Below are positions 3,928 through 63,551 of a DNA stretch of 64,000 bases, piece by piece. The first letter of the stretch is position 1. Each line of letters opens with the position of its first letter. Under the pieces are notes generated by a model that had not been told where the DNA came from, ran no database searches, and was given only the letters and a program-made list of their open reading frames with translations. This DNA comes from an uncultured Alphaproteobacteria bacterium. GTDB lineage: Bacteria > Pseudomonadota > Alphaproteobacteria > ATCC43930 > CGMCC-115725. Location: the NCBI GenBank assembly GCA_963730745.1, contig CAVSTA010000025.1, positions 1 through 64,000 on the forward strand, in the 5' to 3' direction. Both the position numbers and the translations under genes were made by a program.

Positions 3928-4290
3928 TCGATCCCGGGCTCGGCGAACCCTATCTCTATCGCCAGCTGGTCGGCCCCTGGATCCTTAACTTTCCGACGAA
4001 GGGTCACTGGCGCGCCGTATCTAACTTTCTGACATCTGGCGGGTATCCAATACCTGGTTGATCATTACAAAGAATGGGGTATTACCTCTATTGCTGTGCC
4101 GCCGCTTGGCTGCGGCAATGGGCAGCTTGATTGGAACGTCGTCGGCCCAACCCTATATCGATACCTCGCCGAGCTTAAAATCCCTGTTGAGCTGTACGCC
4201 CCGATCGGCGCGCCTGCTGAGCAGTTTCTGACGCGGCCAAATTCTGCCGCGACCTCGGGAGAGCCGCTCCGAGTGGTCGGGGCACGTCTA
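3928..4290 (+). pseudogene. Macro-domain (DarG-like ADP-ribose-binding fold) fragment, frameshifted
   Basis: GEPYLYRQLVGPWILNFPTKGHWRAVSNFLTSGG then GIQYLVDHYKEWGITSIAVPPLGCGNGQLDWNVVGPTLYRYL; the FPTK.HWR...SIAVPPLGCGNGGLDW pattern resembles DarG-type macro domains, recalled from memory only. Stop and frameshift present. Confidence 0.4.
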
Positions 4291-15788: not shown

Positions 15789-18085
15789 TCACAAGGCGAT
15801 CGACGGCGCATCGAGCAGCTTTTCCAGCCGGATCGGCAGCTCGCGGATCCTCACGCCGGTCGCGTGATAGACGGCGTTGGCGACTGCCGCGTTGGTGCCG
15901 ACATTGCCGAGCTCGCCCAGCCCCTTGATGCCGAGCTCGTTGACCAGGTGATCTTCCTCGGGGATCAGGATCACCTCGGCCTCGTCGATGTCGGCATTGA
16001 CCGGGATCAGATATTCGGCGAGGTCGGTGTTGTAGTAGCGGGCGCTCCGGCGATCGATCTCGGTCGCCTCGTGCAGCGCCGAGGAGACGCCCCAGATCAA
16101 GCCGCCCATCAGCTGGCTCTTGGCGGTCGTCGGGTTGACGATGCGGCCGGCGGCGAAGGCGCCGACGACGCGCGGACAGCGGATCTCGCGCGTTCGTGCG
16201 TGCACCCGCACCTCGACGAATTCGGCGCCGAAGGCGAATTGGATGCGGTCCTTCATCTTGGCGCCGCCGGCCAGCACGGCATGCCCTGGTAGAGCTTGCT
16301 CAACCCCTCCGGCGGAACGCCGTGCGGGATGTTCTCGGCATAGGCCTCGATCGCGCCGTTCGATACCCGGCGGATCGCCGCCTCGAGCGGCTCGGAACCG
16401 CCGTCAGGGTCCTTGCAGCGTGCCGCCGGTCAGCACCAGGCGGCCTGCATCCTTGCCGGCGAAGGCGCCGTTCGCGGCGGCGACGGCCGCTTGCGGCGAT
16501 GCGCGAGCGGATCTGCTCGCAGGCCTTGGCGACGACATTGCAGACGCTGGCCGTGGTGTTGGAGCCGCCCGCGACCGGGGCCGGCGGCAGGTCGGAATCG
16601 CCGAGCTCGACGGTGATCTTGTCGAGCGCGACGCCGAGCCGGTCGGACGCGGTCAGCGCGACCACGGTGTAGGCGCCGGTGCCGATATCGTGCGCCGCGG
16701 TCTGCACCTTGACCGCGCCCTGCGGCGTTATCGTCACGCGCGCCGTCGCCGGGCCCATTTGCGTCGGATACATCGTCGTGGCGCAGCCCCAGCCGACCAG
16801 CCAGTCGCCGTCGCGCATCGATCCGGGCTTCGGATTGCGCCGGTCCCAGCCGAACGCTCTGGCGGCGGCATCGAAGCACGGGATCAGGGTGCGGCTGGTA
16901 TAGGGCAGGCCCTTGATCGGCTCGCGCATCGTGTCGTTGCGCCGGCGCAGCTCGACCGGGTCCATGTTCAGCGCGACCGCCAGCTCGTCCATCGCGCATT
17001 CGAGCGCGAACAGATACGGCACCTCGGGCGGCGAGCGCATGAAGCCCGGCGTGTTGCGGTCGGCATGGACGATCGACACTTTCGAGGCGACGTTGGGGCA
17101 GGCGTAGAGCCGGGTCGAGGCGTCGGTGCCGGCGACCTTGTAATTGTCGGGCCGGCTGGTGACCTCCTCGCCCTCGTGGATCAGCGCCACGAGCTTGCCG
17201 TCACGGTCGGCGCCGAGCCTGACGTGATGGCGCGTCTCGGCGCGGTAGGTGGCGATCGTGAAGCCCTGGTCGCGGGTGGCGACCAGCTTGACCGGCCGGT
17301 TCAGCCGGCGCGCCGCGACCGCGATCAGCGCGGTGCGCTGGGTCAGCGAGCCGCGCGAGCCGAAGGCGCCGCCGATGAAGGGCGAGACGACATGGATCTT
17401 CTCGGGATCGATGCCGAGCTGCTCGGCGAGGCCGTTCTTGAGGCCGGTGACGTTCTGGCTGGCTTCCCAGACCGTCAGCTTGCCGCCGGCCCAGGCGCAG
17501 CTGGTGGTGAACAGCTCGATCGGATTGTGGTGCTGGGTCGGCGTCGCGTAATGCGCATCGACCTTCACCGGCGCGCCGGCGAAGGCGGCCTCGGCATCGC
17601 CGACCGCCGGGTCCTCGTAGTTGCTCGAGGCGTCCTTCGCGGCGACCGTCGTCGCGCCGGCGCTGTCGAAGCCGGCCGAGGGCTGCTCCGCGGCGTAGGT
17701 GACGTTGAGCCGATGGGCCGCTTCGCGCGCCGCCTCGAAAGTCTCGGCGAGGACCACGGCGACGATCTGGCCGCCATGCCAGATCCGGTCGGAGGCCAGC
17801 GGCATGATGGTCGAGCCGACATAGCCGCCGTCGCTGAACAGCTTGGTCGGCTTGATCGCGTTGCCGATGTTGCGGTGGGTCAGGATGTCGAGCACGCCCG
17901 GCACGGCGCGGCTGGCGCTCTCGTCGATGGCGGCGATGCGGCCGCGGGCGATCGCGCTGGTCGCAAGGAAGGCATAGACCGGGTCGGCGAGCGGCGTGTC
18001 GGAGCCATAGCGGGCTTCGCCGGTGACCTTCAGGCGGCCGTCGATGCGCGGCGCCGGCGGTGCCGATCTTGGCTGTTTGCTCCAT
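15789..18085 (-). CDS. Xanthine dehydrogenase/aldehyde oxidase family molybdopterin-binding large subunit (PaoC-like), ~2 frameshifts
   Basis: Start [31 protein letters not shown]...; long Moco-subunit ORFs 17201-18085, 16300-17904 and 15789-16277 in adjacent frames. Confidence 0.7.
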
Positions 18086-19116
18086 GAGTCAGATGCTCAA
18101 TTGGGCGTGCTTGCAGGAGGGCGCGGACCAGGGTCCGCCTGCCGAGCTCGGGCTTGTAGTCGTTGTCGCCATGGGTTTGCGCGGCGGCAAAGGCAGCTTC
18201 GGCGGCGCGCCGGGCAGCGGCTTCGTCGATCAGCGCTTGGCCCTTCAGCGCGGCTTCGGCCTCGCGCGCCCGCCACGGCTTGGTCGCGACGCCGCCGAGC
18301 GCGATCCGCGCCTCATTGACGATGCCGTCGGCGAGGTCGAGCGCGACCGCGGCGGACGCCAAGCGCGAACTCGTAGGATTGCCGGTCGCGGATCTTCAGA
18401 TAGAGCGAGCGCCGCGTCCACGGCGCCGCCGGCAGCCGGAAGCCGGTGATCAGCTCGCCCGGCGCGAGCATCGTCTCGATATGCGGGGTGTCGCCCGGCA
18501 GACGGTGCAATTGCTCGAACGGCATGACCCGCGGCCCGCCCGGGCCGGCGATCTCGACCGCGGCGTCGAGCGCGACCAGCGCCTGCGCGAAATCGCCCGG
18601 ATAGGTGGCGATGCAATGGTCGCTGACCCCGAGCACCGCATGCTTGCGGTTGACGCCGTCGAGCGCGGCGCAGCCGGTGCCCGGCTCGCGCTTGTTGCAG
18701 GCGCCCCAGGACGGATCGCGGAAATAATTGCAGCGCGTCCGCTGCAGCACATTGCCGCCGAGCGTCGCCATGTTGCGGAGCTGCGGGCTGGCGGCGAGAT
18801 CGAGGGATTGGGCGATGACCGGATAATTCCGCCTGATCTCGGGATGCTCGGCCGCGGCGGCCATCGTCACGAGGGCGCCGAGATGGAGCCCGTCGGCGCG
18901 ACGTTCGATGCGGGTGCCCGCTGGGTCGAGGGCGTTGATGTCGACCAACACCTCGGGCCGCATCACGTCGAGCTTCATCAGGTCGAGCAGGGTCGTGCCG
19001 CCGGCCAGAAATTGCACCGCCGCCATGGTCGGCGGGAGACCGCTGCCGTCGTGGCTCGCCGCCGCCTGGACCGCCGCGGCAAGACCGCCGGCGCGCTGGT
19101 AGAGGAAGGGGCGCAT
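18085..19116 (-). CDS. FAD-binding subunit (PaoB/CoxM-like) of the Mo-oxidoreductase, frameshift near the C-terminus
   Basis: [19 protein letters not shown]...[12 protein letters not shown]...NMATLGGNV; C-terminal [23 protein letters not shown]. Confidence 0.65.
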
Positions 19117-19119
19117 CTC

Positions 19120-19761
19120 GTCAGCTCCGCATCTCGCCTTTGGCCTGGTTGATCGCCGTCGACGATGTGCGGGTAGGCGGCGCAGCGGCAGAGATTGCCG
19201 CTCATATATTCGCGGATCTCGGCGTCGCTGCCGGCATGCCCTTCCTTGACGCAGGCGATCGCCGACATGATCTGCCCCGGCGTGCAATAGCCGCACTGGA
19301 ATGCGTCCTGATCGATGAAGGCCTGCTGCATCGGGTGGAGCGCGCCGCCCGGCTCGGCGAGCCCCTCGATCGTCGTCACCGGGCCGCGCACCGCGACGGC
19401 CAGGGTCAGGCAGCCGAGCACCCGCGTGCCGTCGACCAGCACCGTGCAGGCGCCGCACTGGCCGTGGTCGCAGCCCTTCTTCGCGCCGGTCAGGCCGAGA
19501 TGCTCGCGCAAGCGCGTCGAGCAGCGTCGTGCGCGGATCGACCGTCAATTGCCGCGCGCGCCCATTGACGACGAGGTCGAACGAGACGACAGCGCGCGGA
19601 TCGACGACTTGTCCGGGCATTTCCGCCGATGCTCGACCCTGAGCTACCGCGGCAATCGGCGCGAGCGCGGCGGCCGAAGCGCCAGAGGTTAGAAGCGAGC
19701 GCCGGCTGACCCCGCCGCAACGCACGCCGGGGGCGCCCTGAGAAAGCGCCTTTGTTGTCAC
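19120..19761 (-). CDS. [2Fe-2S]-binding small subunit with Tat signal (PaoA-like), one frameshift
   Basis: N-term [24 protein letters not shown] is a Tat signal; [11 protein letters not shown] and CGYCTPG ferredoxin motifs. Confidence 0.65.
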
Positions 19762-19875
19762 GTGCCACCTTTATTCGTTTAACGGTTCGCCGCACCACCG
19801 CCGTCGCCCGGACCACAAGGCTACGGTTCGGATTACGATACCCAGGGCGGTGCGCTGTCTGGTAAAGGTCCTCCG

Positions 19876-21066
19876 GTGTGCGATGGTTCCGCTCGCCGCG
19901 GAAGGAAGCGGCCGTTGGCGCAGACTGAGACACCAGACGCGCTCGCGCGCGCCGGTGCGGCGACAAGGCGCGGCCGAAGCCCAGCGGCGTCGCGCCTTGC
20001 CGTTATCCGATACGCCGGCCGGCATCTCGGCTTTTTGGCCGGGCTGCTCATCCTCGCGGTCGCGATTGGCATCACCTATCGCTACCTGTTCGATCCGCTC
20101 GAAGAGCGGACGCTGCCGTTTTACATCCGCAGCTGCATCCATGCGATGGGCCTGACTTTCGCCGGCTGGGCCATCCATCTGACCTTCGCGGCGGTCCCGC
20201 GATCGCGGCTCGGCGGCGTGTTGCGGCGATTGCCGCTGAGCGCCGAATTCGCGATCAAGGCGCTCACGATGACGGCGGCCCTGACGATCGTCGCCGTCGG
20301 GCTCCAATTCGTGCTCTACCCCTTTCCGCTGTCGCGATACTGGCTCGCCGATGAGCTGCCGCTGATCGTCGGCATTACTTTTTCTGCGTCGCTGGTTGTT
20401 GGCGCGATGTTCGAGTTCCGCCGGATGATCGGTGGCCGTGTCCTCGGCAGCTTTTTGCTCGGAACCTATCATCGGCCGAGACGCGAACAGCGCATCGTCA
20501 TGTTTCTGGACATTGCCGACTCGACCGCGCTCGCCGAGCAGTTCGGCGAGCTGCGCGTGCACGATCTGATCACCAGGTTCTTTTTCGACATCGACGAACC
20601 GATCGCCGACCAAGACGGGGAAGTCCACGCCTATGTCGGCGACGAGGTCATCGTCACCTGGCCGCTGAGCGAGAACCCCGGGCGCAACGCCCGGTCACTG
20701 CGCTGCTTCTTCGCCATCGAAGAGAAGATGGTTGATCTCGCCCCGTCCTACGCCCAGGAATTCGGCGTCGTGCCGCGCTTCCGTGCCGGCCTTCATGCCG
20801 GTCCCGTCGTCGTCAGCGAGTGCGGCGACGCGAAGCGGCAGATCGCCTATTTCGGCGACACGATGAATGTCGCCGCGCGGCTTTGCGAGCACTGCAAGGC
20901 CGCCGGAGAAACCCTGGTCGCCTCGGCCGACATGCTGCGCAGCGCCGCGGTCCCGCATGGACTCGCCGTGGGGCGGCACGTCAGCCTCATGCTGCGCGGA
21001 CGACGAACCCCGGTCGAGGCGCACGCGGTGCATCGCCACGAGCCCGCCGAAGCGGTGCAGCGGTGA
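19876..21066 (+). CDS. Membrane-anchored class III adenylate/guanylate cyclase (start uncertain)
   Basis: Several N-terminal TM helices, then a CHD cyclase domain (IVMFLDIADSTALAEQFG...YVGDEVIVTWP...GDTMNVAARL). Confidence 0.65.
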   Translation: MCDGSARRGRKRPLAQTETPDALARAGAATRRGRSPAASRLAVIRYAGRHLGFLAGLLILAVAIGITYRYLFDPLEERTLPFYIRSCIHAMGLTFAGWAIHLTFAAVPRSRLGGVLRRLPLSAEFAIKALTMTAALTIVAVGLQFVLYPFPLSRYWLADELPLIVGITFSASLVVGAMFEFRRMIGGRVLGSFLLGTYHRPRREQRIVMFLDIADSTALAEQFGELRVHDLITRFFFDIDEPIADQDGEVHAYVGDEVIVTWPLSENPGRNARSLRCFFAIEEKMVDLAPSYAQEFGVVPRFRAGLHAGPVVVSECGDAKRQIAYFGDTMNVAARLCEHCKAAGETLVASADMLRSAAVPHGLAVGRHVSLMLRGRRTPVEAHAVHRHEPAEAVQR

Positions 21067-21361
21067 GCGGTGACCGCGCCGGCGCACTGATCAGTCCCGG
21101 GCGCTCCTCTCCAGCCGGATGGCGGCATCAATGAGTGATGACCATGTCGGCCGTCACGGCGAGCGATGGCGCCTCGACTTCTCGACCGGCCTCATTGCCT
21201 GCACCGGAATGCGGTTGGCGCAGCCGCAGGTCTGGCCGCGTTGGCTGCGGCGATCGCTCCCTTGACCGTCATCTCGGATTTGTCGCATGGGAGACGAGCC
21301 CGGAATTTCGCAGGACGAATTTTCACGCGCTTCGCGGAGGGCACTATCGGGAGGGGATCCG

Positions 21362-22438
21362 ATGACCACGGGAGCGGCGGGTGGTTTGAGCGCCATCCCG
21401 CAACCGGTAACCGCGGCTCTGACGCGCGCGGCAATCTTTCTGGTCGCGGCGGTGAACCCGGGTGCCGACAATCGCGCCGCCGTGAGATCGCTTTGCGGAG
21501 ACCTCGCCGCGCTTTTGCGTGCGGTCGGTTTTCGCGACCCGGAGGGAAGCCTCTCCTGCGTGATGGCGATTGGGTCCGACGCGTGGGACCGGCTCTTCGG
21601 GCAGCCGCGGCCGGCGGAGTTGCATGAGTTTCGAGAGATCCGCGCGGGACCGCGCCAAGCCGTCTCCACAGCCGGCGATCTGCATTTCCACATCCGCGCG
21701 GAGCGTATGGATCTCTGCTTCGAATTGGCCACGCAAATCATGGCGCGGCTCGGGAATGCCGTTTCAGCGGTCGACGAGGTGCACGGCTTTCGGTCCTTCG
21801 ATACCCGCGATCTTCTCGGGTTCGTCGACGGGACGGAGAACCCCAGCGGCCGGGCAGCAATTGACGCCACGTTGATCGGCGACGAGGACATCGCGTTCGC
21901 GGGCGGCAGCTACGTAATCACGCAGAAATACCTGCACGATCTGACCAGCTGGAATGCGCTGCCTATAGAAGCGCAGGAGCACATCATCGGCCGCACAAAA
22001 CTGTCCGGCATCGAGCTGGATGCGGCGATCAAGCCGAGTTCGGCGCACAGTGCGCTCACCACGATCGTGGAGAACGGGAAGGAGATCAAGATCCTGCGCG
22101 ACAACATGCCTTTCGGCCGTGCCGGGCAGGGTGAGTTCGGCACGTACTTCATCGGCTACAGCCGTTCGCCGCGCACGATCGAGCAGATGCTCGAAAACAT
22201 GTTCGTGGGTCGCCCGCCGGGCAACTACGACCGGCTGCTGGACTTCAGCAGGGCCGTTACCGGCCACCTCTTCTTCGCGCCGTCTGCGACGTTTCTGGAA
22301 AACGTGACAGCCGACGAAGCCCAGCCGGTCGCGCCCGCACAATCCGTTCAGCCCGTGCCGGATGGTTCACCCCTGGCCGATGGTTCGCCCCGGCTCGATG
22401 GTTCGTTGGGCATCGGCTCGCTCAAAGGAGACCCCGGT
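21362..22438 (+). CDS. DyP-type (dye-decolorizing) peroxidase cargo protein with C-terminal encapsulin targeting peptide
   Basis: DyP motifs (HFHIRAERMDLCFE, GFVDGTENP, FIGYSRSP). Ends with a Pro/Ser-rich linker and DGSLGIGSLKG, the canonical encapsulin cargo-loading peptide. No stop codon before the downstream ATG. Confidence 0.75.
22424..22432 (+). promoter_or_regulatory. Ribosome-binding site (aaaggagac) for the encapsulin gene, embedded in the 3' end of dyp
   Basis: AAGGAG ~8 nt upstream of the encapsulin ATG at 22439. Confidence 0.5.
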
Positions 22439-23248
22439 ATGAATAATCTGCATCGCGAGCTTGCGCCGATATCCGAGGCGGCGTGGGCGCAGATCGAGGA
22501 GGAGGCCTCGCGCACCCTCAAACGCTACCTCGCCGGGCGCTGCGTGGTCGATGTGCAAGGGCCGAGCGGCACCGCCCTCTCGGCGGTCGGCACCGGTCAT
22601 CTGCGGGCTATCGCGGCGCCAGCGGAAAGCATCATCGCCCGGCAGCGCGAGGTGAAACCGTTGGTCGAGTTGCGCGTGCCGTTCGAGTTGGACCGCCAGA
22701 TGATCGACGATGTCGAGCGCGGCGCAAACAATTCCGATTGGCAGCCCGCAAAGGATGCCGCGCGACGGATCGCTTTTGCCGAGGACGGCGCCATTTTCGA
22801 GGGCTATCCTGCGGCCGGTATCGAAGGCATCCGCCAGGGGACCAGCAATCCGATTACGACATTGCCGAGCGACGTGCGTAATTACCCCGACGCGATCGCC
22901 CAGGCGTTGAACCAGCTGCGTCTGGTCGGGGTCAACGGTCCTTACTCGGTGCTGCTGGGCGCCGACGCCTATACCGCCCTCGCCGAGACCAGTGACAACG
23001 GGTATCCGGTGCTGCAGCACATCAGGCGTCTCGTCGATAGCGAAATCATCTGGGCCGCGGCCATTGCGGGCGCTTTTGTCGTCACCACCCGCGGCGGCGA
23101 TTTCGACCTGCACATCGGCCAGGACATCTCGATCGGCTATCTGAGCCACACCGATGCCGCCGTTCGCCTGTACCTGCAGGAGACGTTCACCTTCCTCCTG
23201 CTGACCACAGAGGCCGCCGTGGCGCTGGCGCCTGCGTCGGCATCCTGA
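22439..23248 (+). CDS. Family 1 encapsulin (linocin M18-like) shell protein
   Basis: 270 aa: MNNLHRELAPISEAAWAQIEEEA...PFELDRQ...NPITTLPSD... is typical HK97-fold encapsulin. In frame with upstream dyp. Confidence 0.8.
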   Translation: MNNLHRELAPISEAAWAQIEEEASRTLKRYLAGRCVVDVQGPSGTALSAVGTGHLRAIAAPAESIIARQREVKPLVELRVPFELDRQMIDDVERGANNSDWQPAKDAARRIAFAEDGAIFEGYPAAGIEGIRQGTSNPITTLPSDVRNYPDAIAQALNQLRLVGVNGPYSVLLGADAYTALAETSDNGYPVLQHIRRLVDSEIIWAAAIAGAFVVTTRGGDFDLHIGQDISIGYLSHTDAAVRLYLQETFTFLLLTTEAAVALAPASAS

Positions 23249-23304
23249 CGGTTGCTTGCGGAAGGCATCCTTGCTGGGGCTCGGCTACGCCGACCATGGT
23301 CGGA

Positions 23305-23440
23305 TCAACTCGTCCCGATCCGGCCTGGCAAACGGGGCGATTTCGCCACCGGCTTTGGCGAGATGATGCCCTCGTTGATGCCGACGATGCCGTATTCGAG
23401 CTCCTCGGCGACGCGCCAGATGCGGCCGCATGTCGCGGCT
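23305..23440 (-). pseudogene. gabD: gabD 3'-end fragment (divergent; ...[23 protein letters not shown]), broken at the FYSRD codon by a ccctcccttccctcccc-initiated element
   Basis: DNA and protein similarity to the C-terminus of the intact gabD at 29407-29760. Confidence 0.5.
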
Positions 23441-23499
23441 GTAGCCCTCCCTTCCCTCCCCGGCAAGCGGGGGAGCGCTAGGATGGGGGCATGGTCGGC

Positions 23500-23650
23500 C
23501 ATCTCGACCCGCAAAAAACGCCTGCGCCCATCGCGCACCCCCTGTTCCGCCTGTTTTATCAGGTCGAGATCAGGCATCGCCAACTCCTTCAAAAACAAAA
23601 GGCCCCGCTCGCGGGGCGCCGATCTCGCAACGATACGATGCGATTATGGC
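23500..23650 (-). repeat. Copy 3 of the conserved junction motif (ttgaaggagttggcgATGcctgatctcgacctgataaaacagg ... atgcgattatgg)
   Basis: See 3793-3900. Confidence 0.5.
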
Positions 23651-23669
23651 GACTTTACTGTTGCTTACT

Positions 23670-23770
23670 GATGGCACCGGCGGTCTCGGCGAGGCGCCTG
23701 GTGAAGGCGTCGTACACGCCGGCTTGCACCAGGATGCGGTGGGCACAGACGCAGGTCTGGCGGGGCGTCG
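23670..23770 (-). pseudogene. gabD: Short gabD mid-region fragment (roughly aa 300-330)
   Basis: ~85% DNA identity to 29935-30020. Confidence 0.4.
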
Positions 23771-23798
23771 CGCGGGGCCCAACGCGACGAAAATTCCG

Positions 23799-24140
23799 CT
23801 AGAGCCCGATCAAAGCCACCAATTTCATGCGAACTTCGTGCAGAATTTCTGCGGGAACCGCGGCTCCGGCGTAGCTGATCGGGCGCGCCATGGTATCGAT
23901 GCTCCGCACATGGCTGGTCAAGATCTCTCCGGAAACCGGCAGCCCCATCGGCAGCACAACGCTGGTGCCAAAGGGACGAACGCGCGAGGTAATCGGGCAG
24001 ACGATCGCGAACTCCGTTGCCCGGCAAAAGTCGGCAGGTGAAACGACCAGCGCGGGGCGTCGACCGCTCTGCTCGCGACCGACGCGAGGATCAAAATCGG
24101 CCCAGATAAGGTCACCCGCCTCCGGTGCGTAAGCCATCAC
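23799..24140 (-). CDS. mazF: MazF/PemK-family toxin
   Basis: GDLIWADFDPRVGREQSGRRPALVVS...FAIVCPITSRV. Confidence 0.75.
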   Translation of the reverse strand: MMAYAPEAGDLIWADFDPRVGREQSGRRPALVVSPADFCRATEFAIVCPITSRVRPFGTSVVLPMGLPVSGEILTSHVRSIDTMARPISYAGAAVPAEILHEVRMKLVALIGL

Positions 24141-24141
24141 C

Positions 24142-24396
24142 TCATTCGACGATCTCGCGACCCTTGTCAGGTCCCCAATCGAAGGCCTGGCGCATCGCCT
24201 CTGGAGTCATCCCCCGCAACAAGTCGGCGAGGACATAGCGCGGGCGAGCCGGAGAAATGATGATCCGGTCGCCCTCAGCCTCTACATCGACCCGGGCTCC
24301 CTCGCGCAGGCCCGCTCGACGCGCGATCTCCTTGGGAATGCGCAGGCCAAGGCTGTTGCCCCAGCGTGCGACCTGCACTTGCATCGGCTTCTCCAC
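24142..24396 (-). CDS. mazE: MazE/PemI (SpoVT-AbrB) antitoxin
   Basis: VARWGNSLGLRIPKEIARRAGLREGARVDVEAEGDRIIISP; immediately upstream of the toxin. Confidence 0.7.
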   Translation of the reverse strand: MEKPMQVQVARWGNSLGLRIPKEIARRAGLREGARVDVEAEGDRIIISPARPRYVLADLLRGMTPEAMRQAFDWGPDKGREIVE

Positions 24397-24437
24397 CCGC
24401 CAGGATATACATAGGATATCCGATCAATGCCGTCAAG

Positions 24438-24560
24438 TCAGCGGTCGATGCCGCCCATGCAGAGGTATTTGACCTCGAGGAATTCCTCGATGCCGTATTC
24501 GAGGGCCTCGGCGACGCGCCAGATGCGGCCGATGTCGCGGCTGTAGAAACAGGCGATGGC
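24438..24560 (-). pseudogene. gabD: gabD C-terminal fragment with an internal deletion; left half of a copy split by the MITE-like element
   Basis: [41 protein letters not shown]. Confidence 0.55.
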
Positions 24561-24875
24561 CCCCTCCCTTCCCTCCCCCGCGGGCGGCAGGGCTGTCCGG
24601 GGAATCGAACTCGGTTGCACCAGATCCGTGTCGCACAACCGCCATTGGCCAAGAAAAACCCCTCTCCGCCCTTTAGGGGGGAGAGGGAGGGGCCCGCGAA
24701 GCGGGAGGGTGAGGTGGGCGGCGCCGCAAACCGGCACGACGGCCCTCCTCACCCTACCCTCTCCCCGGCCGGCGGGGGGAGAGGATATTATTGCGGGTCA
24801 TCTGCAATGGACTTAACGGCAAAGTTGATCCTATATTTTCCCCGGACAGCCCTGCGCGGGCGGGGGAGGATTAGG
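24555..24875. mobile_element. MITE-like non-autonomous element (~320 bp) with ~30-40 bp imperfect terminal inverted repeats and internal perfect hairpins
   Basis: Left end ccctcccttccctcccccgcgggcggcagggctgtccgggg vs right end ccccggacagccctgcgcgggcgggggagg. Internal palindromes ccctctccgccctttaggggggagaggg, gggagggtgagg/cctcaccctacc and ccctctccccggccggcggggggagagg. Interrupts a gabD fragment. Confidence 0.45.
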
Positions 24876-24879
24876 GTGG

Positions 24880-25320
24880 GGGCCTCGTTGGCCGTCTTGA
24901 ACGCCTCGTCCTCGCTCTTGAAGCGGTAGAGCGGGGCGACGGGCCCTAAGGTCTCCTCCTTGTTGATGACCACGTCGGTCGTCACATCGGTCAGGACCAT
25001 CGGCTCGAAGAAGCTGCCGCGCCGTCTTCATGTTTGATGGGCGGCGCGCTTGCCGTCGGTGACGACCTCGCCGCCCTTCTTCAAGGCGTCGGCGATGTGC
25101 GCCTCGACCTTCTCGACCGCCTTCATGTCGATCAGGGGCCGATCACCGCTCCAGGCTCGGACCCGGTGGCGACCTTCGTCGCTACGGTGATCCGGGCCTG
25201 GGGAAGGCATCGCATGACACCGTCCTGCACAGAGATGCGGCTGGCGCCACGCAGGTGTGATCAGCATACGGTAGTAGGCGCGCTTAATTGCTCCCACCCC
25301 AATTGCGCTATGCGTTAAAA
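24880..25320 (-). pseudogene. gabD: gabD fragment (roughly aa 283-415), continuation of the copy split by the MITE
   Basis: ...ILVQDGV..., [72 protein letters not shown]. Confidence 0.55.
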
Positions 25321-25326
25321 GGAGTA

Positions 25327-25940
25327 ATGGTTTCTCTCCCACCGCACCTAGCGCGCACTCAAATCCGACCTGGAGGAACGAGGAAACATGCCTACGTTCA
25401 GATTCTGATCGCTGCGATTGCTTGTGCGACGCCGGCCATGACGTCCGCCGCGGCTGACTGCCATATTGACGCGAGGTCGGTCGCCGGCACCTACGGCTTA
25501 GCGGCACAGGGCGTGGCAACTGACACGAACCCCCTCGTCCCGTTGGACCGTTTGCCCAAGCGGGTACGGTAACCCAGGTCGCGACGTCGCAAACATCAAA
25601 TACGATCAGCGGCACCTGGATGCTGATATCGGAGAGAACAACGCGAACGGCTACACGCCGGATACACCCCTCAGCGGCACCTTCCAGATCGACCGGGCGA
25701 GGTGTGCCGGGGAATTCTACATAACCGGCCTCACGCGCCGGCTTTCCATGTCGTGGTCGTCGCTGGCGGTGACGAAGAGCGAGCGATTTCGGCGCTACCC
25801 AACCTGATCGTGGCATACGTCAGCGTCAAGCGCCTGTAACGGTTGCGAGTCGGACCAACCTTGGTGACGCAAACGGCTTAGCACGCCGATAATGCGACCG
25901 GCCGAGGACCTGCAATAGCGCCTGAGCTCGCAGGGCGCGA
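25327..25940 (+). other. Cargo segment with a small putative secreted protein ORF (good RBS aaaggag; signal-peptide-like ILIAAIACATPAMTSAAADC), apparently frameshifted
   Basis: ORF 25327-25572 continues in another frame (NPGRDVANIKYDQRHLDADIGENNANGYTPDTPLSGTFQIDRARCAGEFYITGLT). Flanked by direct gabD-fragment repeats. Confidence 0.3.
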
Positions 25941-26400
25941 CCAGGCCGAAAGTCTCCTCCTTGGTTTATGACCACGTCGGTCGTCACATCGGTCAGGACC
26001 GTCGGCTCGAAGAAGCTGCCGCCCTCTTCAGTTGATGGGCGGCGCGCTTGCCGCCGGTGACGACCTCGCCGCCCTTCTTCAAGGCGTCGGCGATGTGCGC
26101 CTCGACCTTCTCGACCGCCTTCATGTCGATCAGCGGCCCGATCACCGCACTAGGCTCGAACCCGTCGGCGACCTTCATCGCGCCGGCGGTTTCACCGAGG
26201 GCTCGGTGAAGGCGTCGTAGACGCCGTCCTGCACAAGGATGCGGTTGGCGCAGACGCAGGTCCGGACGGCATTGCGATATTTGGGGGCAATTGCGCTCTC
26301 GGCCGCGGCCTCGATACAGTTTTTTGACCGGGCCAGCGCACTACTCCGTCTGCAATTGCCGATCTCCCTCGGTCAGCATCAATTAGCACGATCGGGTTCG
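25940..26400 (-). pseudogene. gabD: gabD internal fragment (roughly aa 225/265-392), ending at the GPVAP codons
   Basis: [49 protein letters not shown]...[19 protein letters not shown]. Confidence 0.5.
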
Positions 26401-26433
26401 AGGCCAGCTCGCAGCCGATCCTGGCCCCGCCCG

Positions 26434-26823
26434 CTACTTCAGGACATTGCGTGCCAACCCGTGGGCGGCCTGCGCCAGCCGATCGTCATTCGTCCATAAG
26501 GCAGCGCATTGATGATGCTGGGCGCAAGCGAGGTGCAGCGCATCTGGTGTCCTCAAACCAAAGTGACCGCGGAGCTGGGCGGCTTGCAGGTAAACCGGCT
26601 CGGGCATTTCCAACGACGCGAACTGGTCGAAGAGGTCGATATAGGCGCGCTGCAGAACTGGATCCCCACGCTTGATGGGCCCTACCAGACACTCGCATTT
26701 GACCAGCGGGGAGATGCCGAAGCGGGCTCCTTCGGCTTGGGCGATCGCGCCTGCGACGGGCTCGCCCCACCGCGCATGATGCTCGGTAAGGTAGATCACC
26801 AGGCAGGCGTCGAGATAGATCAA
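26434..26823 (-). CDS. vapC: VapC PIN-domain toxin (GTG start overlapping the phd stop)
   Basis: [17 protein letters not shown]...[14 protein letters not shown]...[29 protein letters not shown]. Confidence 0.7.
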
Positions 26824-27086
26824 TCCCACGAGCTTCTCTCCAGCCGGATGGCGGCATCGATCTCCTCGGCAGAACGTCGCGCGTAGGCGGGCAGGGGATG
26901 GCCCTTGAGCCAGTCGAGAATGGCCCGGGCGCTGCCCGCATCTGCTCTTGCCGCCGGCGCCGGTCCCGTAGGCACCAGCCGAACCACCGGTTCGCCGCGG
27001 TTGGCGATGACCACCTCCTCGCCGGCCCGAGCGGCTCTTATCAGCTGTGAGAGGCGGTTCTTCGCCTCCAAGATGTTTACTTGCAC
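26820..27086 (-). CDS. phd: Phd/YefM-family antitoxin
   Basis: [39 protein letters not shown]. Confidence 0.7.
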
Positions 27087-27129
27087 GAGCCCCTACTCCG
27101 ACCTTCTCCTGGCTAGAGATGGCTATACT

Positions 27130-27414
27130 AGCCAGATGTGTAAAGGCATGTCGGTCGATGCCGCCCATGCAGAGGTATTTGACTTCGAGGAATTCCTCGA
27201 TGCCGTATTTCGAGCCCATGATCGCGGGGCCGATGCCGCTTTCCTTCATGCCGCCGAAGGGGGCGATCTCGGTCGAGATGATGCCTTCGTTGATGCCGAC
27301 GATGCCGTATTCGAGCGCCTCGGCGACGCGCCAGATGCGGCCGATGTCGCGGCTGTAGAAATAGGCGGCGAGGCCGAATTCGGTGTCGTTGGCCCATCTT
27401 TGTGGCGTCGTCAT
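27130..27414 (-). pseudogene. gabD: gabD 3'-end copy (aa ~393-end) without a stop, reading through into the phd/vapC region
   Basis: [55 protein letters not shown]...[17 protein letters not shown]. Confidence 0.6.
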
Positions 27415-27441
27415 CGGTCTCGAAGGGTCGGCCCACCAAAT

Positions 27442-27681
27442 TTAATCGTACGGGCGCCGGGAGGTGTGGCGGATGTGCACGATCCGGATGGCGTCTTCGG
27501 CGACCCGATAGAAGATCTTGTAGCGATAGCTGGGAAGCAGCGCGACGCGGACGCCCGGCCTCCGGACCACAGCGCGGCCGCTCAATGGCGATAGGGCTAT
27601 CCGTGCGATGACTTGCTGAATGCGCTCTGCGATCCTGTCAGCCGATCGCCGAATTCCCGGACCGAGCGTAATAGGCAGCAA
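27442..27681 (-). CDS. RelE/ParE-family toxin
   Basis: ...RVALLPSYRYKIFYRVAEDAIRIVHIRHTSRRP is the RelE/ParE C-terminal signature. Confidence 0.65.
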   Translation of the reverse strand: MLPITLGPGIRRSADRIAERIQQVIARIALSPLSGRAVVRRPGVRVALLPSYRYKIFYRVAEDAIRIVHIRHTSRRPYD

Positions 27682-27723
27682 TTTGTCGAAGATCGGCGAG
27701 GGCCCGCTTCGAATATTCGACCC

Positions 27724-27948
27724 TCATGCCTTCCGGAACAGGGCGAAGGCCGCGTCGACTTCGTCTTCGCTCGCGGCTTCCCCGGAGAGCCCTTCGTCGA
27801 TCGCTGCCAATTCGTCCGGCGTCGCCTCGTATTCGGCGCCGGCGAGTTCGGCCTCGATTTCGAGGGCAATCTCGGCCAGCTCCTGCTGCCGGTCTTCCGG
27901 CCAGGTCGGGACCCGTTCCAATACTGCCTTAACCTGATCCTTGGTCAT
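27724..27948 (-). CDS. Putative antitoxin partner of the RelE/ParE toxin
   Basis: 75 aa acidic protein MTKDQVKAVLERVPTWPEDRQQELAEIALEIEAEL...DEVDAAFALFRKA immediately upstream of the toxin. Confidence 0.45.
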   Translation of the reverse strand: MTKDQVKAVLERVPTWPEDRQQELAEIALEIEAELAGAEYEATPDELAAIDEGLSGEAASEDEVDAAFALFRKA

Positions 27949-27998
27949 GATTTCCTGTCCGATCCTGGCCGGTCCACTCTTGTCCGACGATACCTGGC

Positions 27999-28298
27999 TT
28001 ACCGGTCGATGCCGCCCATGCAGAGGTATTTGACTTCGAGGAATTCCTCGATGCCGTATTTCGAGCCTTCGCGGCCGATGCCGCTTTCCTTCATGCCGCC
28101 GAAGGGGGCGATCTCGGTCGAGATGATGCCCTCGTTGATGCCGACGATGCCGTATTCGAGGGCCTCGGCGACGCGCCAGATGCGGCCGATGTCGCGGCTG
28201 TAGAAATAGGCGGCGAGGCCGAATTCGGTGTCGTTGGCCATCTTGACCGCCTCGTCTTCGGCTTTGAAGCGGTAGAGCGGCGCGACGGGTCCGATCAT
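27999..28298 (-). pseudogene. gabD: gabD 3'-end copy (aa ~388-end), beginning exactly at the GPVAPLY codons
   Basis: [99 protein letters not shown]. Confidence 0.6.
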
Positions 28299-28967
28299 GA
28301 CCGCGAACCCGACCGCAACAACGTCCTGGCCCCCTTGCGAAGTTGCTCGAACAGCGCCGCATCCACGGGCTGGTTGAGAAAGCCGTGCGCGACGGCGTTA
28401 CGAACCGCAAGCCCGCGGCGGAGAACGGAATAATCGTCGTCCTCGATGATGCCCTCGGTCAGCAGCATCTTGATAAGCGCCGATGAGGAAATCCGGCGGG
28501 TGGGCGGGATCTTCAGGGGCAAGAGCCGGTGGCGCCCGGCCGCTTCGATAATCGACCATAGCAACAGAAATTCCAGGCGGCGCTGCATCGCCGTCTTCGT
28601 CGACCGAGCTCAGGTTTGCCAGGCGCGCCGAAAGATCTGGAACATCGGGCAGCTGCGAGGGCGGCGCCCATTCCGGATCCGGCAAGTCGGCGTACACTAC
28701 TTGCAGCTTCCAGCCGGCGCGATGCTCCAATGCCCTGGCGAACTGCTGGACTTGTTCGAAGCTCGCCGGCGAAGAGGTCTTGATTTCGACGACGATATTT
28801 TCCCCATTGCGATGGGCGATCAGATCCGGCGCCAGCGTGCGCAAAAACTCCGGCAATTCTCGTGGTGAAGGGTCTACCGAAACCTGGTAGCCTTGGCGCG
28901 AATACCAATCAGCATACTGTCTGATAGCTTCGCGTTCGCTGGCGACGAGGTCGGTGTCGGCACTCAT
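28295..28967 (-). CDS. Putative two-domain protein, apparently frameshifted: N-terminal PD-(D/E)xK-like nuclease fold plus C-terminal HEPN-like region with an Rx4HG motif
   Basis: N-term ...[23 protein letters not shown] (a D...E.K pattern); C-term frame ...[26 protein letters not shown] overlaps the RusA stop (ATGA). Domain assignments rest on motifs only. Confidence 0.35.
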
Positions 28968-29340
28968 GGGATCCTGCTGTGGTCGGGCGCCGGATCGGCA
29001 CGCACGTAAACGAAATCAGAACCTGCCTGCGACATGCGCTCGATTGCGTCCAACAGATATAGGCTCGCTCCGGTCAACGATAACCCAGCGCTGAAGCGGC
29101 TTTTGCGGATCAAGATCTCCGAGACCTGCTGGTCGTCCCGAAAAAGTACGCCCTTGAGACCGTCGAGCAAAGATTTCGCTATGTTGTCGACATCAAGCGT
29201 GGTTTCGCCCTGATAGAAATAGATGATCAAGACCGCGACATCCTGGTCTGTCGGTTCGCCCTCCTGTTCCAAACGTTCCCGAGCCGCTCGCGACACCCGT
29301 TCGCGCCATCGGCGCCGCGAGCGTGCGATTTGCATTCGCG
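28964..29340 (-). CDS. rusA: RusA-like Holliday-junction resolvase
   Basis: ...[39 protein letters not shown] matches the RusA DxDNxxKxxxDaL...DD.qV catalytic signature. Confidence 0.55.
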
Positions 29341-29406
29341 CTGCGGGGCGCGCCGGCAACGATAAACTCCATCCCGGTTCATCGCGCCGACGTGCCGTCG
29401 AGCCGG

Positions 29407-30867
29407 CTAGCGGTCGATGCCGCCCATGCAGAGGTATTTGACTTCGAGGAATTCCTCGATGCCGTATTTCGAGCCTTCGCGGCCGATGCCGCTTTCCTTC
29501 ATGCCGCCGAACGGGGCGATCTCGGTCGAGATGATGCCTTCGTTGATGCCGACGATGCCGTATTCGAGCGCCTCGGCGACGCGCCAGATGCGGCCGATGT
29601 CGCGGCTGTAGAAATAGGCGGCGAGGCCGAATTCGGTGTCGTTGGCCATCTTGATCGCCTCGGCTTCGGTCTTGAAGCGGTAGAGCGGCGCGACCGGGCC
29701 GAAGGTCTCCTCCTTGGTGATGACCATGTCGGTCGTCACGTCGGTCAGCACCGTCGGCTCGAAGAAGCTGCCGCCCTGCGCGGCGCGCTTGCCGCCGAGC
29801 GACCACCTTGGCGCCCTTCTTGACGGCGTCGGCGATATGCGCCTCGACCTTCTCGACCGCCTTCATGTCGATCAGCGGGCCGATCACCGCGCCCGGCTCG
29901 AACCCGTCGGCGACCTTCATCGCGCCGGCGGTCTCGGCGAGGCGCTTGGTAAAGGCGTCGTAGACGCCGTCCTGCACCAGGATGCGGTTGGCGCAGACGC
30001 AGGTCTGGCCGGCATTGCGGTATTTCGAGGCGATCGCGCCCTTGACCGCCATCTCGATATCGGCGTCGTCGAAGACGATGAACGGCGCGTTGCCGCCCAA
30101 TTCCATCGACAGTCTTCTTGACCGTGCCGGCGCACTGCTCCATCAGCAATTTGCCGACCTCGGTCGAGCCGGTGAAGGTCAGCTTGCGCACGATCGGGTT
30201 CGAGGTCATCTCGCCGCCGATCTCCTTCGACGTCGCCGGTGACGCAGGAAAAGACGCCCTTCGGCACGCCGGCGCGCTCGGCCAATTCGCACAAGGCCAG
30301 CGCCGAATAGGGGGTCGCGGTCGCCGGCTTCACCACCATCGTGCAGCCGGCGGCCAGGGCCGGGCCGCATTTGCGGGTGATCATCGCCGCCGGGAAGTTC
30401 CACGGCGTGATCGCGGCGCAGACGCCGATCGGCTCCTTGGTCACGACGATGCGCTTGTCGGAGGCGTGCGCCGGGATCGTGTCGCCGTAGATGCGCTTGC
30501 CCTCCTCGCCGAACCATTCGATGAAGGCGGCGGCATAGGCGATCTCGCCCTTCGACTCGGCAAGCGGCTTGCCCTGCTCGGCGGTCATCAGCGCGGCGAG
30601 ATCCTCCTGGTTCGCCATCATCAGATCGAACCATTTGCGCAGGATCTGCGCGCGCTCCTTGGCGGTCTTGCCGCGCCAGCCCGGCAGGGCGCGGTCGGCC
30701 GCCTCGATCGCCTGGCGGGTCTCCTCGGCGCCCATCCGCGGCACCGTGCCCAAGGTCTCGCCGGTCGCCGGGTTGGTGACCGGGATCGTGCCGCGGTTCA
30801 ACGCGTCGACCCATTCGCCATTGACGTAGCATTGCTGGCGGAACAGCTTCGGATCCTTGAGCTCCAT
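29407..30867 (-). CDS. gabD: NAD(P)-dependent succinate-semialdehyde dehydrogenase, full length but with ~3 apparent frameshifts
   Basis: N-term [22 protein letters not shown]...[18 protein letters not shown]; mid ...[14 protein letters not shown]...[16 protein letters not shown]...; C-term ...[16 protein letters not shown]. Confidence 0.8.
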
Positions 30868-30966
30868 CGCGCACCTCCCTCGGCTCGGTGATTAAGGATA
30901 GGTACGGCCCGGCTTCGGCTTTCGCAAGGCGGGCTGCGATCGAGATGCAAAAACCAGTTCGCCGAT

Positions 30967-31456: not shown

Positions 31457-31610
31457 GTGTACTCCTAGGACTTACGGCCTCCGAGCCTATTGATAGGTAC
31501 TGGCAGGCGGAGGGTTTGACAAGGCGCGCTCGGCTCGTGCGAGATGCACCCACAGGCTGATATAGTGGGCATTACGGAACGAGGCCGAATAAGCGTGACA
31601 GGACTGCTGC

Positions 31611-32656
31611 ATGACCGGTGACACAGCCGACCTCAAGGCATTGCTCGCGCATGTCGCGCAGGGGCGCAGCCTCAGCGAGGGCGAGGCGGAGGCGGCGTTC
31701 GACATCATCATGAGCGGCGACGCCACGCCGTCGCAGATGGGCGCCTTTCTGATGGCGCTGCGGGTGCGCGGCGAGACCGTCGACGAGATCACCGGCGCGG
31801 CGCGGATCATGCGCGCGAAGGCCGTGGCGATCGACGCGCCGCCCGGCACGATCGACACCTGCGGCACCGGCGGGGATGCCTCGGGCAGCTTCAATATCTC
31901 GACCGCGAGCGCGCTGGTGGTGGCCGGCTGCGGCGTGCCGGTCGCCAAGCACGGCAACCGCGCGCTCTCCTCGAAATCGGGCTCGGCGGATGTGCTGACC
32001 GCGCTCGGCGTCAATATCGACGCCGACCTCGCGATCGTGCGGCAGTGTCTGTGGGAGATCGGCATCGGCTTTCTGATGGCGCCGCGCCACCACAGCGCGA
32101 CGCGCCATGTCGCGCCGACCCGGGTCGAGCTCGGCACGCGGACGATCTTCAACCTGCTCGGGCCGTTGTCGAGCCCGGCGATGGCGCGCCGCCAGCTGGT
32201 CGGCGTGTTCGCGCCCGAATGGGTGCGGCCGATGGCCGAGGTGCTCGGGCGTCTCGGCGCCGAGCACGCCTGGGTCGTGCACGGCGACGGCCTCGACGAG
32301 CTGACCACCGCAGGCGTGACGACGGTCGCCGCGTTCGAGGACGGCGAGGTCCGAGATGTTCGAGGTCGTTCCCGAGGATTTCGGGCTGCCGAGAGCGCGG
32401 CTCGAAGACATTCGAGGCGGCGAGCCGCAGCACAATGCCGGTCTGATGCGGGACCTGCTCGCCGGCGTCGGCGGACCGTTGCGGGACGTCGTGCTGTTGA
32501 ACAGCGGCGCCGCCCTGCTCGTCGCCGGCCGGGCGACGACGGTCGAAGCGGGCATCGAGCTCGCGGCCAGAGCGATCGACTCGGGTGCGGCGCGGCGGGT
32601 GCTGGACGAGCTGGTCGCCCGCACCAATGAACCCTGCCATTGCGGAGGCGATTGCG
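31611..32656 (+). CDS. trpD: Anthranilate phosphoribosyltransferase (one apparent frameshift near 32350)
   Basis: [51 protein letters not shown]; C-terminal part in the adjacent frame. Confidence 0.8.
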
Positions 32657-32658
32657 CG

Positions 32659-33458
32659 ATGAGGGATGTGCTCGCCGAGATCTGCGCCGAGAAGCGCGCT
32701 CATATCGCACGCGCGAAGGCCGTGCGGTCCGAGGCCGCGCTGCTCGCCGGGATTTCCGAGGCGCCGCCGGTGCGGCCGTTTGCGGCGGCGCTCGAGCGCC
32801 ATCTCGCCGAAGGGCGCTATGGGCTGATCGCCGAAATCAAGAAGGCCTCGCCCAGCGCCGGGCTGATCCGGCAGGATTTCGATCCCGCGGACGCTCGCCA
32901 GCGCCTATGCGGCGGGCGGCGCCAGCTGCCTGTCGGTGCTGACCGATGTGCCCTATTTCCAGGGCAGCGACGACGATCTTACCGCGGCGCGCGAGGCGGT
33001 CCAGCCTGCCGGTGCTGCGCAAGGATTTCATCCTCGACCCCTATCAGGTCGTGGAAAGCCGGCGTATCGGGGCCGACTGCATCCTGCTGATCATGGCGGC
33101 GCTGTCCGATGCGGAGGCCGCAGAGCTGGCGGCGGCCGCCGCCGAGCTCGGTCTCGACGTGCTCGTCGAAATCCACGACGGCGCCGAGCTCGACCGCGCC
33201 CTGCGCCTTCCGGTGCGGCTGATCGGCATCAACAACCGCAACCTGAAGACGCTCGAAACCGATCTGCGCACCGCCGAGACCCTGGCGCCGGTGGTGCCGG
33301 CGGACCGCATCGTCGTCGCCGAGAGCGGGATCCGCGCGATCCGCGGATCTCGACCGCCTGGCCGCCGCCGGCGCGCGCTGCTTCCTGGTCGGCGAAACCT
33401 TGATGCGCGAGCCCGATGTGGCCGCGGCGACCCGCCGGCTGCTGGGCATTTCAACTGA
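32659..33458 (+). CDS. trpC: Indole-3-glycerol phosphate synthase (frameshifts near 32890 and 33340)
   Basis: [16 protein letters not shown]...[49 protein letters not shown]...[15 protein letters not shown]. Confidence 0.75.
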
Positions 33459-33936
33459 CCCCGGTTTCACCCATCTCGACGCCGAGGGCCGGGCGCGGAT
33501 GGTCGATGTCTCCGACAAGGAGGAGACCGACCGGGTGGCGATCGCCGGCGCCCGCGTCGTGATGCGCCCGGAGACGCTCGAACGCATCCGCTCCGGCGAT
33601 GTCGCCAAGGGCGATGTGCTCGCCGTCGCCCGACTCGCCGGCATCATGGCCGCGAAGCGCACCGCGGAATTGATCCCGCTGTGCCACCCGCTCGCGCTGA
33701 CTTCGGTCAAGGTCGATCTCGAATGCGTGCCCGAGCGCTCGGCGGTCGAGATCACCGCGACCTGCAGATTGCGCGGCCGCACCGGGGTCGAAATGGAAGC
33801 GCTGACTGCGGCGAGCGTCGCCGCGCTGACCGTCTACGACATGTGCAAGGCGGTCGACCGCGGGATGGTCGTGACCGATCTGCGCCTGTTGCGCAAATCG
33901 GGCGGCAAATCCGGGAATTGGGAGGCAGAACCGTGA
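33400..33936 (+). CDS. moaC: Cyclic pyranopterin monophosphate synthase MoaC (true start probably ~33460-33502)
   Basis: [25 protein letters not shown]...[17 protein letters not shown]...[10 protein letters not shown]. Confidence 0.75.
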
Positions 33937-61128: not shown

Positions 61129-61196
61129 GTCGGCCCTCCGATCCTGTCAGCCGAGGTCAATATGATACTGCCCGGTGGCAAGGGCGAGAGCTATCG

Positions 61197-62730: not shown

Positions 62731-62776
62731 AAAATTGCGGACGCTGCGCAGAAGCCCGAATCTGGGTCGGAGCGGA

Positions 62777-63551
62777 TCAGAGGCGCCAGGCAGAATGGAG
62801 CGCAGCGACGCCCCCCGTCAGATTGCGGAATTTGACCTGGTCGAGACCCGCTCCGGCGATCATCTCGGCGAGCTCGCTCTGCCGCGGGAAACGCCGGATG
62901 CTTTCGACGAGATAGGCGTAGGCGTCGCGATCACCGGTGACGACCTGGCCCAGGAACGGGACGATCCGGAAGCTGTAGAGGTCGTAGAGCGGCTGAAGAA
63001 GCGGGGTTATTTCGGGCGTGAATTCGAGACACATAAAGCGTCCGCCCGGCTTTAGCACGCGGCGCGCCTCGGCGAGCGCCCGATCGATATGGGTGACATT
63101 GCGCAACCCGAACCCGACCGTATAGAGATCGACGCTGCGGTCGGCCACCGGAAGCCGTTCGGCATCGGCACACAACCATTCGATCCCGGCGAGAATTCCT
63201 TGATCGAGCGCCCGGGCGCGGCCGATCTCCAGCATCGCCGCGCTGGCGTCGCAGACGACGGCGCCGGCGTCCGTGGCCTCGCTCCGTCCCGAGAAGGCGC
63301 GGCAAGGCGCGCAGGGCGATGTCGCCGGTTCCGCCGGCGACATCGAGCAGACGTTGGCCCGGACGCGGCTTCAACGCGGCCACCATCTCGCTCTTCCACC
63401 AGCGGTGGATCCCGGCGCTCATCAAATCGTTCATCACGTCGTAGCGCACGGCAACGCTGTCGAAAATAGCGCGGACCAGCGGCGCCTTGTCGTGCTCCGG
63501 CACCCGGCGGAAGCCGAAATCGGTGCGAGCGCTTGTGTCTTCCTCACTCAT
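62777..63551 (-). CDS. ubiE: Ubiquinone/menaquinone C-methyltransferase UbiE (one frameshift near 63300)
   Basis: [42 protein letters not shown]...[12 protein letters not shown]... Confidence 0.75.

Follow-up and report, generated by a model that had tools for sequence, protein, structure and literature searches.

A DyP cargo gene followed by a family 1 shell gene is the commonest type of encapsulin operon (PMC12746231, PMC8346489), and the known natural fusions of a cargo to its shell include those of Flp in Archaea and of cytochrome c in anammox bacteria (PMC8346489, 10.1101/085266). The locus considered here lies in the first 64,000 nucleotides (nt) of contig CAVSTA010000025.1, from an uncultured alphaproteobacterium (assembly GCA_963730745.1), a stretch that we call the window, and there, as the sequence is written, a DyP-type peroxidase gene runs in one frame and with no stop into an encapsulin shell gene. 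The locus is most probably an ordinary DyP-encapsulin operon, with an in-frame junction that is a one-base insertion or deletion (indel) of the assembly.

How does it compare with what has been described? With the canonical T=1 DyP operons of Mycolicibacterium smegmatis (7BOJ/7BOK), Mycobacterium tuberculosis (Cfp29/DyP, 7P1T and others), Klebsiella pneumoniae (8U50/8U4Z), Rhodococcus jostii (DypB, 3QNR) and Brevibacterium linens, the window shares the order dyp then shell, a targeting peptide of GSLGIGSLKG type and a 269-amino-acid (aa) shell of T=1 class, but as written it has no DyP stop and a single frame for both genes, whereas the solved systems are all of two separate chains. With the orthologous dyp-enc loci (76-79% DNA identity) it shares the codons of the targeting peptide, the Shine-Dalgarno (SD) sequence inside those codons and an ATGAAYAAY start; unlike them it has a spacer of 15 nt, from the Leu codon of the targeting peptide to the encapsulin ATG, and no stop, theirs being of 14, 16, 17 or 18 nt with a stop. 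The one-frame arrangement recalls instead the Flp fusion (Pyrococcus furiosus, Sulfolobus; T=3) and the cEnc fusion (anammox Planctomycetes), in which a single open reading frame (ORF) likewise joins the cargo to the N-terminus of the shell protein, which faces the lumen (PMC8346489, PMC8229669). Those fusions are conserved across lineages, their cargo domains being small and their shells larger, of T=3 (PMC8346489). The window's junction, by comparison, is unique among 196 loci, keeps both targeting peptide and internal start, and would attach to a T=1 shell an enzyme of 38 kDa that forms hexamers. We know of no targeting peptide described between the domains of Flp-fusion or cEnc encapsulins.

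The open frame and its two halves

The features on which the argument turns are the following.

21287-23248, + strand: ORF for DyP, targeting peptide and encapsulin, 653 aa, no internal stops
21362-22438, + strand: gene of the DyP-type peroxidase that is the encapsulin cargo, lacking a stop of its own as written (Pfam, TIGR01413, solved DyPs)
22397-22429, + strand: C-terminal cargo-loading (targeting) peptide DGSLGIGSLKG, read from the sequence
22425-22430, + strand: SD sequence AAGGAG of the encapsulin gene, lying within the codons for Lys and Gly in the targeting peptide, 8 nt ahead of the ATG
22430-22438, + strand: junction spacer GACCCCGGT, codons GAC CCC GGT (DPG), with a C run at 22432-22435 that is the suspected site of a one-base indel
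22439-23248, + strand: family 1 encapsulin shell gene of T=1 type, 269 aa, 28.9 kDa (NF041155, PF04454)

The initial annotation had described a frame passing without a stop from DyP through DPG to the encapsulin ATG, a canonical targeting peptide at the end of the DyP part and an AAGGAG ribosome-binding site belonging to the shell gene, and reading of the sequence bears out all three, with the peptide and the AAGGAG at the positions listed. At the junction the codons are GAT GGT TCG TTG GGC ATC GGC TCG CTC AAA GGA / GAC CCC GGT / ATG AAT AAT, in translation DGSLGIGSLKG-DPG-MNN, and from the Leu codon to the ATG there are the 15 nt already mentioned. The length of 653 aa given for the fusion stands if translation begins at the upstream ATG, 21287, and fails for a start at 21362, from which the product is of 628 aa and 67.0 kDa. 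ATG 21362 is the likelier DyP start, preferred because GGGAGGGG precedes it (21349-21356, 5 nt upstream) and because solved DyPs align from residue 10-12. Separate products of about 38 and 29 kDa had also been foreseen, and the computed masses are 38.1 kDa for DyP and 28.9 kDa for the shell.

Both halves are well preserved. In the first, Dyp_perox_N and Dyp_perox_C are complete at residues 39-335 of the ORF (Pfam, NCBIfam), PF04261 and PF20628 being matched at full length, and the solved encapsulin-associated DyPs align with E from 1e-107 to 1e-133, R. jostii DypB (3qnr) included and 9e4r, 8u4z and 7bok at about 1e-133. It has the motifs FVDGTENP, SAHSALT and ILRDNMPFG, in which we take the catalytic Asp of GXXDG, the distal Arg and the proximal His to have the roles that they have in R. 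jostii DypB, and the catalytic domains and residues of a DyP thus appear to be in place. What the gene as written does not have is its own stop codon, which is present in 195 of 195 orthologues. In the second half the encapsulin domain (Linocin_M18 / encap_f1) is full length at ORF residues 388-647 (Pfam, NCBIfam), with 351 bits against NF041155 (cut-off 100; model positions 1-261 of 261) and E 5.8e-97 against PF04454 (positions 1-253 of 253). Shell residues 1-265 align at E about 1e-110 with solved encapsulin / Cfp29 / linocin-M18 structures (9i8d, 6i9g, 7boj, 7p1t, 8u50), which, going by the literature, are T=1 DyP encapsulins of Mycobacterium, Mycolicibacterium and Klebsiella. A profile matched along its whole length, close kinship in sequence with T=1 shells that assemble and, immediately upstream, a DyP cargo gene with a C-terminal targeting peptide together argue for a family 1 shell gene. 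A promoter and terminator scan of 20900-23700 gave no promoter-like site and five terminator-like sites, three inside the two coding regions and two on the minus strand downstream; no plus-strand terminator-like site downstream of the shell-gene stop was found in that scan.

Orthologous junctions and the missing base

Is such a frame met with elsewhere in the family? Orthologous loci from soil Acidobacteriota and Alphaproteobacteria (L001-L080 and L082-L201) were compared in two sets. With the shell protein as query 80 species-representative genome loci were retrieved, 74 of which were scored, and a pattern scan of metagenome contigs, using the window's targeting-peptide and SD codons and a free gap of 6-10 nt, gave 121 junctions. 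In 69 of the 74 genome loci the spacer is of 16 nt and the DyP TAA at +5 overlaps encapsulin codons 2-3 (ATGAATAA), the typical DyP C-terminus of that class being GSLGIGSLKGDIRHE followed by the stop; four have a spacer of 17 nt and a TGA at +1 overlapping the ATG (ATGA), and in a single locus, with a spacer of 18 nt, a TGA in frame immediately precedes the ATG. The metagenome junctions have gaps of 8 nt (71/121, the 16-nt class), 9 nt (47/121, the 17-nt class) or 6 nt (3/121, the 14-nt class, also ATGA), and none among the 121 has a gap of 7 or 10 nt. Pooled, this is 16 nt in 140 loci, 17 nt in 51, 14 nt in three and 18 nt plus a stop in one.

An in-frame junction without a stop occurs in none of these 195 independent junctions (0/74 genome, 0/121 metagenome), i.e., no orthologue conserves the fusion, and the in-frame stop-free junction of the window is not a chance state. 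The initial annotation held that a stop normally lies between the two genes: a stop is indeed kept in 195 of 195, but in 194 of these it overlaps the encapsulin start (ATGAATAA or ATGA) and so is within the first encapsulin codons rather than between the genes. It had proposed this very comparison, and of its alternatives the outcome favours a stop lost to sequencing error and gives no support to a genuine fusion.

The setting of the stop is itself informative. Nearly all 74 scored genome loci keep the GSLGIGSLKG peptide, the coding sequence of which is also in the 121 metagenome junctions, and most of the 74 have AAAGGAG at the SD position, the metagenome set giving no independent measure of SD conservation as the SD was part of its search pattern. 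The conserved encapsulin start, ATGAAYAAY, gives a DyP stop in both other frames (TGA at +1, TAA at +5). For that reason one indel is enough to make an apparent fusion, the more so because the frames around the start are long and open at high GC. The near-exclusive use of the 16-nt and 17-nt spacer classes suggests translational coupling. Two observations may be set beside this. The junction of this dyp-enc family (22421-22446 in the window) has a conserved dual-coding design, its AAAGGAG specifying Lys-Gly in the targeting peptide while serving as the SD of the shell gene, and this too helps to explain why one indel suffices. A 4.9-kb metagenome contig (L155) carries the dyp-enc junction twice, inverted and in mirror image (809-848, + strand; 4075-4114, - strand), probably a palindromic assembly artefact.

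Could genes so closely overlapped be subject to programmed recoding, either frameshifting or readthrough, that yields a defined fraction of DyP-shell fusion? The overlap in the orthologous family is the only basis for the idea, nothing specific speaking for it, and its probability is close to nil. Stop-codon readthrough, raised earlier, is rejected as inapplicable, since the window has no in-frame stop that could be read through; the orthologues, for their part, have DyP and the shell gene in separate frames, and at the encapsulin start each of the alternative frames is closed by a stop; and neither a slippery site nor a conserved structure was seen, no search aimed at either having been made.

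The nearest relatives are more telling as to what happened. The five closest loci (L152, L147, L128, L149 and L123), about 79% identical in nt across both genes, read GGAGATCCCCGGCATGAATAA at the junction, from which the DyP end is GSLKGDPRHE and stop. Aligned with them the window, GGAGAC-CCCGGTATGAATAA, shows a gap of one column; its spacer is one base shorter, GGAGAC-CCCGGT against GGAGATCCCCGGC in these relatives. When one C is added to the run at 22432-22435 the result is a DyP of 361 aa ending GSLKGDPRYE, with the usual overlapping TAA. Judged from the aligned sequences, the ancestral state of the junction, with a stop, is clear, which leaves mutation and error as the two readings of the missing base. 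The same sequence would result from an extra C in a spacer of 14 nt with an ATGA overlap, but this is less likely, being less parsimonious because Asp-Pro-Arg matches the nearest relatives. The window's protein is the single member of its 90% cluster.

If mutation, the event would be a real and very recent fusion, a deletion of one base in the spacer having joined DyP and its targeting peptide to the shell N-terminus, with the retained AAGGAG and ATG supplying free shell protein and mixed shells holding a few DyP subunits tethered in the lumen. We regard this as improbable, though the least improbable of the rivals. It can appeal to the sequence as given, which encodes exactly such a DyP-shell fusion with both domains intact and full length. 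On the other side, no lineage among the 195 orthologues conserves the state, and the targeting peptide, the SD and ATGAATAA are all untouched, which leaves a real fusion no evolutionary depth.

Frameshifts in the window and fusions in the databases

How far is a single missing base to be trusted in this assembly? The remark in the initial annotation about its indel rate proves well founded: at least 10 frameshifts in housekeeping genes were counted in the 64 kb, about 1.6e-4 per base, each a Pfam domain or an obligate pair split across frames. The genes and regions concerned are these.

trpD: Glycos_transf_3 positions 4-174 and 170-252 in different frames, one shift
trpC: IGPS positions 1-73, 101-220 and 217-254, two shifts
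Molybdenum (Mo) hydroxylase large subunit: MoCoBD_2 positions 2-135 and 198-282 split
Mo-hydroxylase FAD subunit: FAD_binding_5 and CO_deh_flav_C in different frames
coaBC: DFP positions 1-55 and 56-185 split
ubiB: ABC1 positions 2-163 and 168-244 split
ubiE: only positions 75-232 in frame, the N-terminal part missing
Aldehyde dehydrogenase: positions 1-192 and 335-460, the middle missing, at least two shifts
31599-33936 (+ strand), 15792-19770 (- strand), 59922-63370 (- strand) and 29410-30891 (- strand): regions with frameshifts

Apart from the shifts these genes keep full domain matches and a strong coding signal (GC at third codon positions about 0.8). Direction and context of the indels other than that at the junction were judged from frame phases and by eye, and on such inspection several sites are compatible with one base too many in a short run of Cs. 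With at least 10 frameshifts around it and its junction in a C run, the fusion ORF does not rest on reliable sequence, and oddities at the level of ORFs anywhere in the window are to be read with its richness in indels in mind.

One might see in the same list a locus in genuine decay, its frameshifts real and due to relaxed selection, with the junction one of them and of no adaptive meaning. The many frameshifts fit this, as do the repeated aldehyde-dehydrogenase fragments and toxin-antitoxin (TA) insertions at 23.3-30.9 kb. However, the joint loss of trpD, trpC, coaBC, ubiB and ubiE is hard to credit in a 65% GC genome of free-living type, and a strong coding signal with full domain matches is typical of consensus errors rather than of decay. 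As several of the shifted genes are essential, and all have that strong signal, the frameshifts stem far more probably from consensus errors than from decay, and decay is a very improbable explanation of the junction.

Two further observations concern the genes just listed. At 32600-32665 (+ strand) trpD reads in frame into trpC without a stop, there being a GGAGG before the trpC ATG and an ATGA overlap in another frame; this read-in is probably a further case, within the window, of a stop abolished by an indel. On the minus strand at 23305-30891 the aldehyde dehydrogenase has extra partial 3′ copies at 28002-28397, 25996-26340 and 24791-25027, and 3′ remnants at 24441-24797 and 23308-23643, interleaved with genes of TA type (ParE, 27445-27723; MazF-like, 23799-24140; AbrB/MazE-like, 24142-24396). 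The pattern suggests that TA cassettes were inserted one after another at the 3′ end of this gene, each accompanied by a duplicate of the gene end.

The databases do contain proteins that combine DyP and encapsulin domains, about 40 in a search with the full-length query. In most of them the region of the targeting peptide is translated in the encapsulin frame (RSASDLSKETYQM, VRSASVPSKETYDM, RFARHRFPKRRSPGM), and from a peptide out of frame it follows that there is a frameshift in the Pro/Ala-rich linker; several have garbled internal stretches besides. An intact in-frame targeting peptide is found, the window aside, in four (P0022, P0041, P0030 and P0019), of which P0022 and P0041 are scarred elsewhere and P0030 lacks part of its 5′ end. 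The idea that the top database hits, P0002-P0036, include a conserved clade of true fusions was considered and rejected, most of the junctions reading the peptide out of frame and several showing other scars. Clearly broken DyP genes were found at eight genome loci (L003, L009, L015, L031, L047, L058, L061 and L070), and two more look short at the N-terminus. All eight are among the about 50 metagenome-assembled genomes (MAGs) named as long-read, as against 0 of 23 short-read MAGs, where the platform is what we presume from the naming. Indel errors are, as far as these sequences tell, the usual origin of DyP-encapsulin fusions, and the fusion proteins in the databases are mostly indel products of long-read MAGs, artefacts rather than a protein family.

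The remaining protein, P0019 (L081, 3200-5029; JGI 3300086361, contig Ga0683570_0000796), looks clean. It is a DyP, targeting peptide (GSLRVGSLRESRN) and encapsulin in one frame of 609 aa, with an in-frame spacer of 15 nt (agggagtcccgcaacATG), on a contig with intact neighbouring genes and an adjoining HicAB toxin-antitoxin pair. In architecture and spacer length it is like the window, from which it differs in being 60% identical and of an unrelated lineage. It is the only clean-looking analogue, and the only candidate that emerged for a genuine natural DyP-shell fusion.

Error or just-born fusion

What, then, would a real fusion entail? In T=1 DyP shells there are one or two hexamers, 6 or 12 DyP subunits per 60 protomers, cargo to shell being 1:10 or 1:5 (PMC8229669). 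By our computation 66-91% of the lumen volume would be taken up by sixty fused DyP domains, and the suggestion that the arrangement would load cargo stoichiometrically is, with 6 or 12 known per 60, sterically implausible. Each fused DyP would moreover drag one shell protomer with it, against a known capacity of 6-12 DyP per 60-mer (PMC8229669), and ribosomes reading through the junction would be expected to occlude the internal SD on which free shell protein would depend. Against a real fusion there are also the frameshifts, at least 10, in essential genes of the same assembly, and the two large encapsulin surveys list no DyP-fusion class. In its favour are the lumen-facing N-terminus of encapsulin and the natural N-terminal fusions there of Flp in Archaea and cytochrome c in anammox bacteria (PMC8346489, PMC8229669), the P0019 (L081) analogue with the same 15-nt in-frame spacer, and a mention in passing by Tracey et al. 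2019 (PMC6934571), citing Sutter 2008, that some DyP encapsulins are fused, a statement at second hand.

The balance is strongly towards an assembly indel within a canonical DyP-encapsulin operon, the in-frame junction being in high probability an artefact. For the stop having been lost to sequencing error there speak the stops of 195 of 195 orthologues, the one-base gap and the frameshift load. On this account the true locus would be a two-gene family 1 operon, a B-type DyP with a C-terminal targeting peptide and then a T=1 shell gene. The DyP would likeliest end ...GGA GAC CCC CGG TAT GAA TAA, giving GSLKGDPRYE and a stop lying across the first codons of the shell gene, an ATGA overlap being the less likely form. 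Translation of the shell gene would begin at its own ATG, served by the AAGGAG, and would probably be coupled to the termination of DyP. An indel of one base in the run of Cs (22432-22435) would merge the frames and remove the stop, leaving the 628/653-aa fusion as its artefact. That the difference is an error rather than a real mutation, and that the overlap serves coupling, are the most likely readings of the comparisons above.

A rough calculation points the same way. At 1.6e-4 per nt a spacer of 15 nt has an expected indel chance of about 2-3e-3, higher if C runs are error-prone, and clean in-frame junctions are one or two among several thousand operon-equivalents (>7000 clusters scored), about 3-7e-4 and themselves unverified; the two figures give odds of roughly 4-10 to 1 for error.

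Several considerations weigh on the other side. The expected number of indels is small, and the argument for error thus rests on real fusions being rarer still. The best relatives are only 79% identical in DNA, and a real deletion of one base, if very recent, would look identical. Those frameshifts of the window with a direction that can be inferred are mostly +1, whereas at the junction parsimony favours a -1 change. The clean in-frame junction of P0019 means that the state can occur, or be mis-assembled, outside error-rich data. Finally, as the archaeal Flp fusions illustrate (PMC8346489), topology does not prevent a cargo fused to the N-terminus from being encapsulated.

Were the shorter spacer real, for which we see a small chance, the locus would make a DyP-peptide-encapsulin polyprotein together with free shell protein, and hence T=1 shells to which peroxidase is covalently tethered. 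This would then be a just-born cargo-shell fusion, in which targeting peptide and internal start have not yet decayed, and the first documented for DyP. It would offer a snapshot of how fusions of the Flp-encapsulin type arise from two-gene operons, and a natural template for covalent enzyme loading. As matters stand, with assembly error the preferred explanation, the value of the locus is cautionary: a single indel can create an apparent DyP-encapsulin fusion, and most of those in the databases have arisen through such errors.

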